Positions 55,413-64,000 of a DNA stretch of 64,000 nt are shown in pieces. A program made the position numbers and the translations under genes. The DNA lies in NCBI RefSeq assembly GCF_030013205.1, contig NZ_CP122648.1; one strand, given 5' to 3'. A model generated the notes under the pieces. The model saw only the letters and a program-made list of their open reading frames with translations. It made no database searches and was not told the origin of the DNA. The stretch comes from Escherichia coli. Lineage in GTDB: Bacteria > Pseudomonadota > Gammaproteobacteria > Enterobacterales > Enterobacteriaceae. Every line of letters starts with the position of its first letter. Positions within the stretch are counted from its first letter, which is position 1.

Positions 55413-57491
55413 TTAAATCAATGCCGATTTATCAATTCCAAGCCGCTTCATCCGTGACAGCAGGGTCGTGCGTTTCAGCCCCAGACGTTGCGCAGCGCCT
55501 TTAGGCCCGGCAACCACGCCGTTGGTTTCTTTCAGCACGCGAACAATCAACTGATATTCATCTTCGCCCTCCTGGGCGACAACCGTTGCGGCGGGCGGCG
55601 TTTCTGGTTCCGGTAAAACAATATCTGGCAGTGACAGCTGCAGCACGTTGCCGCGTGTTAGCAATACCGCGCGCTCAATGACGTTTTCCAGTTCGCGTAC
55701 GTTACCCGGCCACTCCATGTTGCTCAGGATGCGCAGCGTCTCGGCAGGAATGCTGTCGATATTGCGCCCCAGACGACGGGCAATTTTGAAGGTAAAGGCT
55801 TTCGCCAGCAGCGGAATATCTTCCGGACGCTCGCGTAGTGGCGGCAGGTGAATCGGGAATACGTTCAGGCGGTAATAGAGATCGCTACGGAACTCACGGT
55901 CGGCGACCATTTTTTTCAGATCGCGGTTAGTTGCGGCGATTAGACGCACGTCCGTCTGAATGATTTTGTTGCTGCCGAGACGTTCAAACTCCTGTTCCTG
56001 TAATACACGCAGCAACTTCGGCTGTAACTCCAGTGGCATATCGCCCACTTCGTCGAGGAACAGGGAGCTTTTATCCGCCAGTTCAAAACGACCAATGCGC
56101 TGGGCGCTGGCACCGGTAAAAGCCCCACGCTCATGACCAAACAGATCGCTCTCCAGCAATCCGGCAGGCATCGCCGCGCAGTTCATTTTGACCATGCGGC
56201 GATTATTACGCCCACTGAGATTATGGATCGCGCGGGCAATCAGCTCTTTACCTGTACCAGTTTCACCGAGAATCAGCACGGTACTGTCGCTTTGCGCCAC
56301 CATTTCAACTTGTTTAAGTACGCTGTACATGGCTTCGCTGCGGCCAATAATCTCGCCAAATTCACTATCAACATTGTTGAGCTGCTCGGTCAGGGCGAGG
56401 TTTTCATCAACCAGCCGTTCTTTCAGACGATGGATTTCCTGATAGGCGAGGGCGTTATCGACAGCGATTGCCACACGTTCGGCAATCTGGCGCAGTAAAT
56501 TCAGATTGGTAGTGGTAAACACTTTCTCTTCGCATTGCGCCAGTTTCAGCACGCCCAGCATGGTGTCGCCAGACATCAGCGGTAACAGGCACAAGGTTTG
56601 AATCTGGTTGCCCCAGGTGTCGAACAACATACGTTCATAGGGGGCTAAATCGTCCCGCTCGTGGAGATTAATCAACAGCATCTCTTTACTTTTGAAGACG
56701 CGTTCGGTGAGGGTTCCGGCTTCATCGACTTCGCTCTGTTCGTGGGCGGGATGCTGTTTATCAAGATAGTGAGTGGAGTAGATGTTGAGTTTGTTTTTAC
56801 GGTGGCTGCGTAAGACGATGCTGATATCGTCAATGTCGAAGTAGTAATGGATTTCTTTGGCGACTTCGCTGACCAGTTCGTCCATATCCAGGCGGGAAAG
56901 CACCGCGTTGGTAATGGCAACCAGGATGCGGAAGTTATCGCGTTCCCGGCATAACAACTCATAGTCGACATTGTTAACGACGCGACTCTGGATTTGTTCG
57001 GTGACGACAGAAACGATCTGCGTAAATGTTTGCAGACGATTGAACTCTTTTTCGCTCCAGGGGCGATCGTCATAACGAATAAATTCACAGCCACCAAAAA
57101 TATGCCCTTCCGCCGCCAGTGGCATCAGGCAATAGTGACCAAATTTTGGGTATAGCCCACCTGCGGCCAGCTGCGGCCAGGTTTCACAAAATTCTTCGTA
57201 ACTGCAATGCAGCGTATCAGGGCGCGACAAAATGCTGCGTACCGGACCGTGTGCCAGAACAGTTTCGTCTTCATATTTAATGGGGGTGTCTTTTTCACGC
57301 GATGCGTAATAAGACGCACGTTGAGTCTGCGCTTGCCACAACACAATAGCCGCGTTGTCGGCGAGCGCAGAACGCTTTACCAGTTGCGAAAGAGCCTCAC
57401 ACAGCGAGGCCAGATCGGGCTGCTGCAATAGTGTCCGAGTGATGTCGAACAACCCTTGCTGTCCGAGATCACTCATCGGTGTATATGACAT
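55413..57491 (-). CDS. fhlA: formate hydrogenlyase transcriptional activator (sigma-54 enhancer-binding protein)
   Basis: 692 aa from the internal ATG (MSYTPMSDLGQQG); GAF domains, AAA+ sigma-54 interaction module (GETGTGKE, GAFTGA) and C-terminal HTH. Confidence 0.9.
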   Translation of the reverse strand: MSYTPMSDLGQQGLFDITRTLLQQPDLASLCEALSQLVKRSALADNAAIVLWQAQTQRASYYASREKDTPIKYEDETVLAHGPVRSILSRPDTLHCSYEEFCETWPQLAAGGLYPKFGHYCLMPLAAEGHIFGGCEFIRYDDRPWSEKEFNRLQTFTQIVSVVTEQIQSRVVNNVDYELLCRERDNFRILVAITNAVLSRLDMDELVSEVAKEIHYYFDIDDISIVLRSHRKNKLNIYSTHYLDKQHPAHEQSEVDEAGTLTERVFKSKEMLLINLHERDDLAPYERMLFDTWGNQIQTLCLLPLMSGDTMLGVLKLAQCEEKVFTTTNLNLLRQIAERVAIAVDNALAYQEIHRLKERLVDENLALTEQLNNVDSEFGEIIGRSEAMYSVLKQVEMVAQSDSTVLILGETGTGKELIARAIHNLSGRNNRRMVKMNCAAMPAGLLESDLFGHERGAFTGASAQRIGRFELADKSSLFLDEVGDMPLELQPKLLRVLQEQEFERLGSNKIIQTDVRLIAATNRDLKKMVADREFRSDLYYRLNVFPIHLPPLRERPEDIPLLAKAFTFKIARRLGRNIDSIPAETLRILSNMEWPGNVRELENVIERAVLLTRGNVLQLSLPDIVLPEPETPPAATVVAQEGEDEYQLIVRVLKETNGVVAGPKGAAQRLGLKRTTLLSRMKRLGIDKSALI

Positions 57492-60831: not shown

Positions 60832-61182
60832 TCACTCCTGGTCTATTTCTATCCGCCGAATCTGTAAACCGTCGTCTGCCACAATCTGTAGCATGTCACC
60901 ATGACACTGTGGACAGCGGCGGACGCGCTGGGTCAGTAGCGTCACATACTGTTGGCATGTTTCACACCAGCATTCGGCCTCTTGTTCTTCGAGGTGCAGT
61001 TTACAACCTTCCGCCACGCTGCCGCGGCAAACCAGATCAAAACAAAAGGCAAGAGAGCGGGTTTCGACACAAGAAAATGCGCCAATTTTGAGCCAGACCC
61101 CAGTTACGCGTTTTGCGCCGTGTTTTGCGGCCTGCTGTTCGATCAATTCCAGTGCCCGTTGGCAGAGGGTTATTTCGTGCAT
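60832..61182 (-). CDS. hypA: hydrogenase nickel insertion protein HypA
   Basis: 116 aa from MHEITLCQ; zinc motif CxxC ... CPQC. Confidence 0.9.
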   Translation of the reverse strand: MHEITLCQRALELIEQQAAKHGAKRVTGVWLKIGAFSCVETRSLAFCFDLVCRGSVAEGCKLHLEEQEAECWCETCQQYVTLLTQRVRRCPQCHGDMLQIVADDGLQIRRIEIDQE

Positions 61183-61212
61183 ATCGCCTCCCATTAACTA
61201 TTGCCAGCTACA

Positions 61213-61228
61213 AGCAATAATTGTGCCA
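61213..61228 (-). promoter_or_regulatory. sigma-54 -24/-12 promoter element for the hyp operon
   Basis: reverse complement reads TGGCACaattaTTGCT, about 30 bp upstream of the hypA start. Confidence 0.7.
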
Positions 61229-61341
61229 GTGTTGATTATCCCTGCAGTGAATAATGTCGATGATGTCGAAATGACACGTCGACACGGCGACGAAATTCAT
61301 CTTTAGCTTAAAAATCGCCTTAATAACAATGAATTAAAAGT

Positions 61342-61357
61342 TGGCACAGAAAATGCT
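61342..61357 (+). promoter_or_regulatory. sigma-54 -24/-12 promoter element for the hyc operon
   Basis: TGGCACagaaaaTGCT with GG and GC at canonical spacing, 37 bp upstream of the hycA ATG. Confidence 0.65.
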
Positions 61358-61393
61358 TAAAGCTGGCGTCTCTGTTAAACGGGTAACCTGACA

Positions 61394-61855
61394 ATGACTA
61401 TTTGGGAAATAAGCGAGAAAGCCGATTACATCGCACAGCGGCATCGTCGCCTACAGGACCAGTGGCACATCTACTGCAATTCGCTGGTTCAGGGGATCAC
61501 GTTATCGAAAGCGCGCCTGCATCACGCCATGAGCTGCGCGCCGGACAAAGAACTCTGTTTCGTCCTTTTTGAACATTTTCGTATTTACGTCACCCTGGCG
61601 GATGGCTTTAACAGCCACACCATCGAGTATTACGTCGAAACAAAAGATGGTGAAGACAAACAGCGGATTGCGCAGGCGCAACTGAGCATTGACGGCATGA
61701 TTGATGGCAAGGTCAACATCCGCGATCGCGAACAGGTTCTGGAACACTATCTCGAAAAAATCGCGGGCGTTTACGACAGCTTATACACCGCTATTGAAAA
61801 CAATGTGCCGGTGAATTTAAGCCAACTGGTAAAGGGACAAAGCCCGGCAGCATGA
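61394..61855 (+). CDS. hycA: formate hydrogenlyase regulatory protein HycA
   Basis: 153-aa ORF, first gene of the hyc operon, divergent from hypA. Confidence 0.85.
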   Translation: MTIWEISEKADYIAQRHRRLQDQWHIYCNSLVQGITLSKARLHHAMSCAPDKELCFVLFEHFRIYVTLADGFNSHTIEYYVETKDGEDKQRIAQAQLSIDGMIDGKVNIRDREQVLEHYLEKIAGVYDSLYTAIENNVPVNLSQLVKGQSPAA

Positions 61856-61979
61856 GCTGAGGCTTTGCCCGTTTTGCAGGCGTTACGCCTGTTTGGGGAT
61901 GGGCGTGTCGATGAGTGTCGAAAATGACATTTCATCGGCATGTTTTCGTCAAAAATGACAATCACCTGAGGAATGCCTG

Positions 61980-62591
61980 GTGAATCGTTTTGTAATTGCT
62001 GACTCCACGCTCTGTATCGGCTGCCACACCTGTGAGGCCGCCTGTTCAGAGACGCATCGCCAGCACGGCCTGCAATCAATGCCGCGCCTGCGAGTGATGC
62101 TCAATGAAAAAGAATCTGCGCCGCAGCTCTGTCACCACTGTGAAGATGCGCCCTGTGCGGTGGTTTGCCCGGTTAACGCCATCACCCGCGTTGATGGGGC
62201 CGTGCAGTTGAATGAAAGTCTGTGCGTAAGCTGCAAACTGTGCGGCATCGCCTGCCCGTTTGGCGCAATTGAATTTTCCGGCAGCCGTCCGCTGGATATT
62301 CCGGCAAACGCCAATACCCCGAAAGCGCCACCGGCACCGCCTGCTCCGGCGCGTGTCAGCACATTGCTTGACTGGGTGCCAGGTATTCGCGCGATTGCCG
62401 TCAAATGTGACCTTTGTAGTTTTGATGAACAAGGTCCGGCCTGCGTGCGGATGTGCCCGACTAAAGCCCTGCATCTGGTGGATAACACCGATATCGCCCG
62501 CGTTAGCAAACGTAAGCGTGAGCTGACCTTTAACACGGACTTTGGCGATCTCACCTTGTTTCAGCAGGCTCAAAGTGGAGAGGCTAAATGA
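61980..62591 (+). CDS. hycB: formate hydrogenlyase 4Fe-4S ferredoxin subunit HycB
   Basis: 203-aa ORF with four CxxCxxCxxxCP clusters. Confidence 0.9.
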   Translation: MNRFVIADSTLCIGCHTCEAACSETHRQHGLQSMPRLRVMLNEKESAPQLCHHCEDAPCAVVCPVNAITRVDGAVQLNESLCVSCKLCGIACPFGAIEFSGSRPLDIPANANTPKAPPAPPAPARVSTLLDWVPGIRAIAVKCDLCSFDEQGPACVRMCPTKALHLVDNTDIARVSKRKRELTFNTDFGDLTLFQQAQSGEAK

Positions 62592-64000
62592 GCGCAATTT
62601 CCCTGATCAATAGCGGCGTGGCGTGGTTTGTCGCCGCCGCTGTTCTGGCATTTCTCTTTTCTTTTCAAAAGGCGCTAAGCGGCTGGATAGCCGGAATTGG
62701 CGGCGCGGTGGGTAGTCTGTATACGGCAGCCGCGGGCTTCACTGTACTGACTGGCGCGGTTGGCGTGAGCGGTGCGCTGTCGCTGGTAAGCTACGATGTG
62801 CAAATCTCTCCGCTTAACGCGATTTGGCTGATTACGCTCGGCCTGTGCGGTCTGTTTGTCAGCCTCTACAACATTGACTGGCATCGCCACGCGCAGGTGA
62901 AATGCAACGGCTTGCAGATCAATATGTTGATGGCTGCCGCCGTCTGTGCCGTCATCGCCAGCAACCTCGGCATGTTCGTGGTAATGGCTGAAGTCATGGC
63001 CTTGTGTGCGGTGTTCCTTACCAGCAACAGCAAAGAGGGCAAACTGTGGTTTGCGCTGGGGCGTCTTGGCACTCTGCTGCTGGCGATTGCTTGCTGGCTG
63101 CTGTGGCAGCGTTACGGCACGCTGGATCTGCGCCTGCTGGATATGCGTATGCAACAGCTGCCGCTCGGTTCCGATATCTGGCTGCTCGGTGTGATTGGCT
63201 TTGGCCTGCTGGCCGGGATTATTCCGCTGCACGGCTGGGTGCCGCAGGCACATGCTAACGCCTCTGCGCCAGCTGCCGCGTTGTTTTCTACGGTGGTGAT
63301 GAAAATCGGCCTGCTGGGCATTTTAACCCTGTCGCTGCTGGGCGGTAATGCACCGCTGTGGTGGGGGATCGCGCTGCTGGTGCTCGGTATGATCACCGCG
63401 TTCGTCGGCGGTCTGTATGCGCTGATGGAGCACAACATCCAGCGCCTGCTGGCTTACCACACCCTGGAAAATATCGGCATTATCCTGCTGGGGCTGGGCG
63501 CTGGCGTAACGGGTATCGCGCTCGAACAACCGGCGCTGATTGCCCTTGGTCTGGTCGGTGGTCTGTACCATCTGCTTAACCATAGCCTGTTCAAAAGCGT
63601 ACTGTTCCTCGGGGCGGGGAGCGTCTGGTTCCGTACCGGTCATCGCGATATCGAAAAACTCGGTGGTATAGGCAAGAAAATGCCGGTTATCTCCATCGCC
63701 ATGTTGGTCGGGTTGATGGCAATGGCTGCGCTGCCGCCGCTGAACGGGTTTGCCGGGGAATGGGTTATCTATCAATCCTTCTTCAAACTGAGCAATAGTG
63801 GCGCGTTTGTTGCCCGTCTGCTGGGGCCGCTGCTCGCAGTGGGTCTGGCAATTACCGGTGCGCTGGCGGTGATGTGTATGGCGAAAGTCTATGGTGTCAC
63901 GTTCCTCGGCGCGCCGCGTACCAAAGAAGCCGAAAACGCCACCTGTGCGCCGCTCCTGATGAGCGTAAGCGTAGTGGCACTGGCGATTTGCTGCGTAATT
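62588..64000 (+). CDS. hycC: formate hydrogenlyase membrane subunit HycC (NuoL/ND5-like), 3' end outside the window
   Basis: ATG at 62588 overlaps the hycB stop (ATGA); open hydrophobic frame runs to the window end; not in the ORF track because no stop is reached. Confidence 0.85.
   Translation, partial: MSAISLINSGVAWFVAAAVLAFLFSFQKALSGWIAGIGGAVGSLYTAAAGFTVLTGAVGVSGALSLVSYDVQISPLNAIWLITLGLCGLFVSLYNIDWHRHAQVKCNGLQINMLMAAAVCAVIASNLGMFVVMAEVMALCAVFLTSNSKEGKLWFALGRLGTLLLAIACWLLWQRYGTLDLRLLDMRMQQLPLGSDIWLLGVIGFGLLAGIIPLHGWVPQAHANASAPAAALFSTVVMKIGLLGILTLSLLGGNAPLWWGIALLVLGMITAFVGGLYALMEHNIQRLLAYHTLENIGIILLGLGAGVTGIALEQPALIALGLVGGLYHLLNHSLFKSVLFLGAGSVWFRTGHRDIEKLGGIGKKMPVISIAMLVGLMAMAALPPLNGFAGEWVIYQSFFKLSNSGAFVARLLGPLLAVGLAITGALAVMCMAKVYGVTFLGAPRTKEAENATCAPLLMSVSVVALAICCVI

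Follow-up and report, generated by a model that had tools for sequence, protein, structure and literature searches.

The divergent sigma-54 promoter pair between hypA and hycA in an Escherichia coli genome

Which promoters drive the divergent genes hypA and hycA of Escherichia coli in the genome analyzed here, and which activator would control them? In the 64,000-nt stretch of DNA that we examined (the window), the two genes face away from each other across a 211-nt spacer, with the hypA ATG at 61182 (minus strand) and the hycA ATG at 61394 (plus strand). We found a sigma-54-type element on each strand of this spacer, and with a probability of about 0.95 these elements are the promoters from which sigma-54 (RpoN) polymerase transcribes two divergent operons of the E. 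coli formate regulon, hypABCDE-fhlA leftwards from PhypA and hycABCDEFGHI rightwards from PhycA. Divergent NtrA (sigma-54)-dependent hyp and hyc promoters were reportedly described by Lutz et al. in 1990. The promoter pair is thus already known: it is the classical NtrA-dependent pair of 1990, found again by every genome-wide sigma-54 study since. The present analysis itself establishes the elements, how significant they are, where they lie and how far they are conserved; the occupancy by and dependence on sigma-54, the control by FhlA and formate and the role of IHF are taken from the literature.

The hypA-hycA locus

The coding sequences that define the locus are the following.

60832..61182, minus strand: hypA, first gene of hypABCDE-fhlA (NCBIfam HypA, 240 bits, cut-off 121; annotated hypA in E. 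coli genomes)
61394..61855, plus strand: hycA, anti-activator of FhlA and first gene of the hyc operon (NCBIfam HycA, 301 bits, cut-off 180)
61980..62591, plus strand: hycB, second gene of the hyc operon, open reading frame with a GTG start
55413..57491, minus strand: fhlA, last gene of the hyp operon, encoding an enhancer-binding activator for sigma-54 promoters (FhlA equivalog of NCBIfam, 1547.6 bits, cut-off 830)

Of 5426 complete E. coli genomes, 5425 contain the hypA/hycA stretch, every time annotated as hypA and hycA, and the stretch is 100% identical to that of strain ETEC4079. The FhlA reading frame encodes 704 amino acids, the alignment to the NCBIfam profile beginning at residue 13. 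The gap between hycA and hycB is 124 nt, equal to that of the K-12 annotation. The composition of the two operons, hycABCDEFGHI and hypABCDE-fhlA, is that given in PMC8743547, and the gene identities of the initial annotation are upheld, HypA, HycA and FhlA all exceeding the curated NCBIfam cut-offs. The promoter pair is of use as an annotation anchor, since it fixes where the hyc and hyp-fhlA operons of the window start and in which direction they run.

Two sigma-54 elements and their significance

The two elements and the transcription starts predicted from them are located as follows.

61229..61213, minus strand: hyp sigma-54 element (PhypA), CTGGCACAATTATTGCT, with the -24 GG at 61227-61226 and the -12 GC at 61215-61214
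61202, minus strand: hyp transcription start predicted by the rule of PMC4591121 Table 1 (motif centre plus 19 nt), with a leader of 20 nt
61341..61357, plus strand: hyc sigma-54 element (PhycA), TTGGCACAGAAAATGCT, with the -24 GG at 61343-61344 and the -12 GC at 61355-61356
61368, plus strand: hyc transcription start predicted by that rule, again 19 nt past the motif centre, with a leader of 26 nt; the base is G here and A in K-12

The hyp core (61228..61214, minus strand) is TGGCACAATTATTGC, that is TGGCAC-N5-TTGC, and the hyc core (61342..61356, plus strand) is TGGCACAGAAAATGC, that is TGGCAC-N5-ATGC; both carry the required GG-N10-GC. The C of the -12 GC lies 32 nt from the ATG in hyp and 38 nt from it in hyc. 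The initial annotation had proposed elements of the type TGGCAC-N5/6-TTGC on both strands of the spacer, at the expected distance from each start codon. Both elements are indeed there, and positions 61213 and 61357, the limits it had given, are the outer ends of the two 17-mers. Its motif has to be narrowed: a spacing of N5 is right for both elements and N6 for neither, and TTGC describes hyp only, the hyc element having ATGC. As for the distance to the start codons, the predicted leaders of 20 nt (hyp) and 26 nt (hyc) equal the values tabulated for K-12. From position 61203 to 61228 and from 61342 to 61367, the two promoters also form a 26-nt inverted repeat (77% complementary), which runs past the -12 box to a common AGCTGGC before the predicted +1. 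This repeat was given no weight because it is not conserved beyond Escherichia and close relatives.

Counting matches to the plain consensus was abandoned as uninformative, since TGGCAC-N5-TTGC with at most one mismatch occurs 8 times in the window for 7.6 expected, and scoring with matrices was used instead. Our own sigma-54 matrix was built from 40 other intergenic ChIP-seq-validated sites of E. coli K-12 (PMC4591121 Table 1), the hyc and hyp sites being excluded, and an independent matrix based on 186 promoters was taken as printed in PMC7658346. The hyp element matches the consensus at 10 of 10 positions and is the sole exact match to TGGCAC-N5-TTGC in 64 kb (0.21 expected). It ranks first in the window with both matrices, at 20.9 bits (own) and 18.7 bits (PMC7658346); the score of 20.9 bits is higher than those of all training sites and was equalled by none of 12.8 million shuffled positions. 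The hyc element, with one mismatch (9/10), scores 15.1 bits with our matrix (rank 4 in the window) and 15.4 bits with that of PMC7658346 (rank 3). A value of 15.1 bits is close to the median of the training sites (15.9) and, taken alone, only marginally above what chance yields in 64 kb, where the mean shuffled maximum is 14.3 bits. In the window, 4 sites reach at least 15 bits with our matrix, for about 0.59 expected from the shuffles. For such a site to lie by chance in the correct orientation and 10-100 nt from one particular start codon, the probability is about 4e-4. The distances from start to ATG, 20 and 26 nt, are short but within the range of the 42 validated intergenic sites (median 44.5, quartiles 32 and 83).

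Other sites of sigma-54 type were noted elsewhere in the window. The second best match, ATGGCACGCCAGCTGCA (12075-12091, minus strand; 16.0 and 16.5 bits), sits in the sense orientation within a 492-aa sugar-kinase-like open reading frame (10890-12368, minus strand) and does not appear in the published high-stringency set of K-12 sigma-54 sites. The sense motif GTGGCACATCTACTGCA (61462-61478, plus strand; 16.0 bits), which lies within hycA at a distance of 121 nt from the hyc promoter element on its downstream side, was considered as an internal promoter and rejected, as it is most likely a by-product of the W-H-I-Y-C codons. Across genera, the His is Arg or Gln in many sequences, TGT accounts for 13 of 57 Cys codons, and the Cys is replaced in others. 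The same sequence is present in K-12, yet it is absent from the K-12 sigma-54 ChIP-seq peak list. Two further sequences are identical to weak intragenic sites of the K-12 sigma-54 ChIP-seq: GTGGCGCGTTTGTTGCC (63798-63814, plus strand) to IS31 in hycC, and CTGGAACGCTTTTCGCA (676-692, plus strand) to IS32 in rlmD. The latter identity places the beginning of the window in rlmD; in K-12, IS32 has been linked to a transcript induced by nitrogen limitation.

Binding of sigma-54 at both promoters is documented in the literature. In the K-12 sigma-54 ChIP-seq, the hypA site OS28 has a fold-above-threshold (FAT) value of 201, the top of 42 gene-oriented intergenic peaks, and the highest motif score too, and the hycA site OS27 comes third of the 42 with a FAT of 91; EcoCyc has the two as promoters with experimental confirmation (PMC4591121). 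By gSELEX, a peak of the RpoN holoenzyme was obtained within the hycA/hypA spacer (PMC8743547). In Salmonella Typhimurium, ChIP-chip revealed sigma-54 bound at both orthologous sites, and sigma-54-dependent induction was 26-fold for hyc and 5.6-fold for hyp (PMC3844500). The initial annotation had related the two elements to the known FhlA- and sigma-54-dependent control of these operons, and this relation is borne out: the elements are the sites OS27 and OS28 of K-12, and the literature gives both operons to FhlA. The comparison with mapped promoters that it had called for likewise leads to these same two sites, the agreement with mapped starts being drawn from secondary sources.

A sigma-70 scan of the hyp-hyc spacer gave 1 promoter-like match for 0.9 expected, and none beyond chance. 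Also, an FNR ChIP study found no sigma-70 peak at hyc and cited hyc as sigma-N-dependent. The single terminator-like match of this spacer (1.5 expected) was rejected as a terminator, as it is the palindrome of the enhancer. A published FNR ChIP-seq summit (Myers et al. 2013, who assign it to hyc; coordinate 2,848,688 of U00096.2) corresponds to about position 61163, some 20 nt inside hypA. Near this summit, within hypA (about 61130-61165), there is a TTGAT half-site, TTGATCGAACAGCA (61146..61133, minus strand). The summit and the half-site fit the FNR-dependent expression of the hyp operon (PMC3149613, PMC7658346).

FhlA-type enhancers and the IHF-like site

A search for upstream activating sequences of FhlA was made with a matrix derived from 13 characterised sites, TGWC-RAWRAT-GWCA (PMC7658346 Table 2). 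The two best matches of the window fall in the hyp-hyc and hycA-hycB spacers, within the two clusters UAS-1 and UAS-2, which are listed here together with an IHF-like site.

61252..61297, no strand assigned: UAS-1, FhlA-type enhancer cluster ATGTCGATGATGTCGAAATGACACGTCGACACGGCGACGAAAT in the hyp-hyc spacer, recognized by its matrix match and its density of TGWCR units
61324..61336, plus strand: IHF-like site TAACAATGAATTA, A/T-rich in its 5' flank and located between UAS-1 and the -24 box of hyc
61905..61960, no strand assigned: UAS-2, FhlA-type enhancer cluster GTGTCGATGAGTGTCGAAAATGACA...TTTTCGTCAAAAATGACA in the hycA-hycB spacer

The best match, at 61916-61929 in UAS-2 (16.6 bits), is above every shuffle, the shuffled maxima having a mean of 12.9 bits and a highest value of 15.5; UAS-2 contains another match at 61947-61960 (12.2 bits). 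The second best match of the window is at 61255-61268 in UAS-1 (15.4 bits). These scores are partly circular, because the 13 sites probably include the K-12 versions of the UAS-1 and UAS-2 sites; they represent an agreement with known sites and not an independent discovery. The clusters also stand out by their density of TGWCR units: UAS-1 has 5 matches in 47 nt for 0.38 expected, one TGACA being counted on both strands, and UAS-2 is the densest cluster in the window. The first half of UAS-2, TGTCGATGAGTGTCGAAAATGACA, almost duplicates UAS-1. The UAS-1 core TGWCGAAATGACAYGTC is nearly invariant in 22 genera. UAS-2 is conserved in all genera for which the hycA-hycB spacer was recovered, with TTTCGTCAAAAATGAC close to invariant; it is better conserved across genera than UAS-1, and no other non-coding element of the locus is conserved as well.

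An idealised 16-mer palindrome for FhlA, CATTTCGTACGAAATG, has been proposed (Leonhartsberger et al. 2000, quoted in PMC4987338). In the hyp-hyc spacer its best match is 9/16, which is the background level, and only the half-site CGAAAT(G) is encountered, at 61267 and 61291. Against UAS-2, the best match reaches 11/16. Thus, the idealised palindrome fails to discriminate natural FhlA sites.

Measured from the T of the hyc -24 box, UAS-1 is 57-87 nt away on the upstream side, in accordance with the usual enhancer distance of roughly 60-120 nt and with the distances in fdhF (58-110 nt) and hydN (60-91 nt). It lies only 27-57 nt from the hyp -24 box, which is short of the usual distance. Relative to the predicted starts, it extends from about -113 to -83 for hyc and from about -53 to -95 for hyp. 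As UAS-1 is at an fdhF/hydN-like distance from the hyc start and close to the hyp start, it looks built for PhycA, and PhypA, with an enhancer so near to its -24 box, may rely on UAS-2, about 730 nt away. No sigma-54 element was found by the matrix scan between UAS-2 and the hycB start (61980). Upstream of UAS-2 and 22 nt after the hycA stop, there is a hairpin CAGGCG-TTA-CGCCTG followed by TTTGGGG (61877-61897, plus strand). It is also present in E. albertii, most other genera having a shorter hycA-hycB spacer without the hairpin, and it was not called by the terminator scan.

The IHF-like sequence TAACAATGAATTA departs from the IHF core WATCAANNNNTTR at a single position (12/13), a match that is not significant alone (56 in the window for 52 expected). 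Most orthologues present the exact IHF consensus, AATCAATGAATTA or AATCAATAAATTA, at the aligned position in the 22-genus alignment. Also, IHF has been reported as an activator of the hyc and hyp genes (PMC2636881).

Taken together with the literature, these elements can be arranged in the following mechanism. Sigma-54 RNA polymerase on each -24/-12 element would form a closed complex, unable to start transcription alone. Formate-activated FhlA would bind the TGWC-N6-GWCA-type units in UAS-1, between the promoters, and in UAS-2, between hycA and hycB, and would reach the polymerase through DNA looping, the opening of the promoter being powered by ATP. A bend of IHF type just upstream of the hyc -24 box may help to bring UAS-1 to PhycA. 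As fhlA is the last gene on the hyp transcript and hycA, the FhlA antagonist, the first on the hyc transcript, a positive and a negative loop would act on the same activator.

Conservation, competing readings and related systems

Conservation was evaluated on one genome per species, the loci being anchored on the codons of the HypA N-terminus MHEITLCQ (120 loci). This anchor carries no information on the upstream DNA, so the sample is unbiased in that respect. Counts were made on the 101 non-Proteus loci of Enterobacterales for which 300 nt or more of upstream DNA was available. A hyp-type element was present in all of them (101/101), 29-63 nt from the hypA ATG, against 0.8% of shuffles, and a divergent element was found further upstream in 96 of the 101, against 6% of shuffles. 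The gene 3' of the divergent element encodes HycA in most Enterobacteriaceae and a remoter homologue in Serratia and Rahnella; the element is followed directly by the gene of a HycB/HyfA-type ferredoxin in a few lineages. In the nine Proteus loci, no sigma-54-type element was found on either strand within 420 nt upstream of hypA; the hyf-type gene order of Proteus (PMC7658346) suggests a different operon wiring. The alignment of 22 genera shows sharp footprints over the hypA ribosome-binding site, the hyp -24/-12 element, a central block (UAS-1), an A/T-rich block that adjoins the hyc -24 box on its upstream side and contains the IHF-like sequence, and the hyc -24/-12 element. The divergent sigma-54 architecture with FhlA-type enhancers is thus kept across Enterobacterales, even without hycA. 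We regard these comparative data as a tidy confirmation, not as a discovery.

Such conservation bears directly on the reading in which a short degenerate motif would have turned up twice by chance, neither match being a promoter. This reading could draw on the consensus counts, which are at the level expected by chance, and on the two equally good matrix matches inside genes (12091-12075 and 61462-61478). However, the hyp site tops every shuffle, both sites are correctly oriented with a predicted start 20-26 nt from the ATG, both elements are conserved across Enterobacterales, and sigma-54 is bound at both sites in K-12 (ChIP-seq) as well as in Salmonella, so that coincidence is hardly credible as an explanation. 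It is also very unlikely, if somewhat less so, that the promoters are genuine sigma-54 promoters served by another enhancer-binding protein, either HyfR, a paralogue of FhlA, or NtrC. A point for this alternative is that the related hyf operon is activated by HyfR, a protein similar to FhlA. Another is the increase of hypA transcripts under nitrogen limitation, but ChIP found no NtrC binding upstream of hypA (both in PMC4591121). Moreover, the enhancer units fit the FhlA site matrix and resemble the fdhF and hydN enhancers, fhlA is encoded in cis, and both operons are assigned to FhlA in the literature. The classical literature also reportedly describes a loss of formate induction of both operons when fhlA is deleted and hyfR and ntrC are left in place. 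We therefore retain two divergent sigma-54 promoters controlled by FhlA.

For this FhlA-controlled pair, we infer from the sequence which enhancer would serve which promoter. The enhancers may be separate, PhycA using UAS-1 and PhypA using mainly the remote UAS-2, about 730 nt upstream of the hyp start; we consider this division of labour tentative, with slightly less than even odds. It would account for the position of UAS-1, which has the fdhF/hydN distance to the hyc -24 box but lies 27-57 nt from the hyp -24 box, and it agrees with UAS-2 being the best match to the FhlA matrix, better conserved than UAS-1, and with the lack of a sigma-54 element between UAS-2 and hycB. The Böck laboratory presumably placed the hyp enhancer, as an FhlA site, between hycA and hycB, which is the position of UAS-2. 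On the other hand, the basis of this division is the geometry of the sequence, UAS-1 reaches 61297, about -95 from the hyp start, and loci without hycA have both clusters in one spacer, so that either cluster could serve either promoter. That UAS-2 would be an enhancer that has escaped description, reaching PhypA from a position about 730 nt upstream or, from within the transcribed region about 560 nt past the start, PhycA, appears improbable.

The divergent pair described here closely resembles that of K-12 (PhypA/PhycA, sites OS28/OS27, Bonocora et al. 2015). The hyp 17-mer is identical to that of OS28, and the hyc 17-mer differs from that of OS27 by a single spacer base (61349), the -24 and -12 boxes being identical. 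The 211-nt spacer, the 113 nt between the TGGCA boxes and the predicted leaders of 20 and 26 nt are also the same in K-12. Compared with K-12 MG1655, the spacer has six substitutions (61246, 61317, 61319, 61331, 61349 and 61368). Of these, 61349 belongs to the spacer of the hyc element, 61331 occupies an N position of the IHF-like sequence and 61368 is the predicted hyc +1; the other three fall in unconserved stretches. None of the six (0/6) affects a specified consensus position; with so few differences, their placement is descriptive and is not a test. The regulatory circuit is thus kept intact in this strain, the six differences avoiding the specified positions of promoters, enhancer and IHF-like site. 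In Salmonella Typhimurium, hycA (STM2853) and hypA (STM2854) are likewise separated by a divergent sigma-54 pair, whose TGGCA boxes also stand 113 nt apart. Its -24 boxes differ in being TGGCAT instead of TGGCAC, and the spacer bases are others (TGGCATGGAAAATGC and TGGCATAAATATTGC).

Within E. coli, fdhF, hydN-hypF and hyfA present the same combination of a -24/-12 element and a TGWCR cluster (TGTCG, TGACA, CGTCA). Counted from the T of the -24 TGGCA box, the TGWCR units of K-12 fdhF, hydN and hyfA begin 58-110 nt upstream. These three, however, are single unidirectional promoters, without a second enhancer downstream of the first gene. The zraP and zraS promoters lie about 150 bp apart, and their activator is encoded in one of the two operons, as in hyp/hyc; they differ from the present pair in their activator, the zinc-responding two-component response regulator ZraR, and in their enhancer sequence. 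In the K-12 sigma-54 ChIP-seq list, where they appear as OS38 and OS39 (PMC4591121 Table 1), they form a back-to-back sigma-54 promoter pair, as PhypA and PhycA do.
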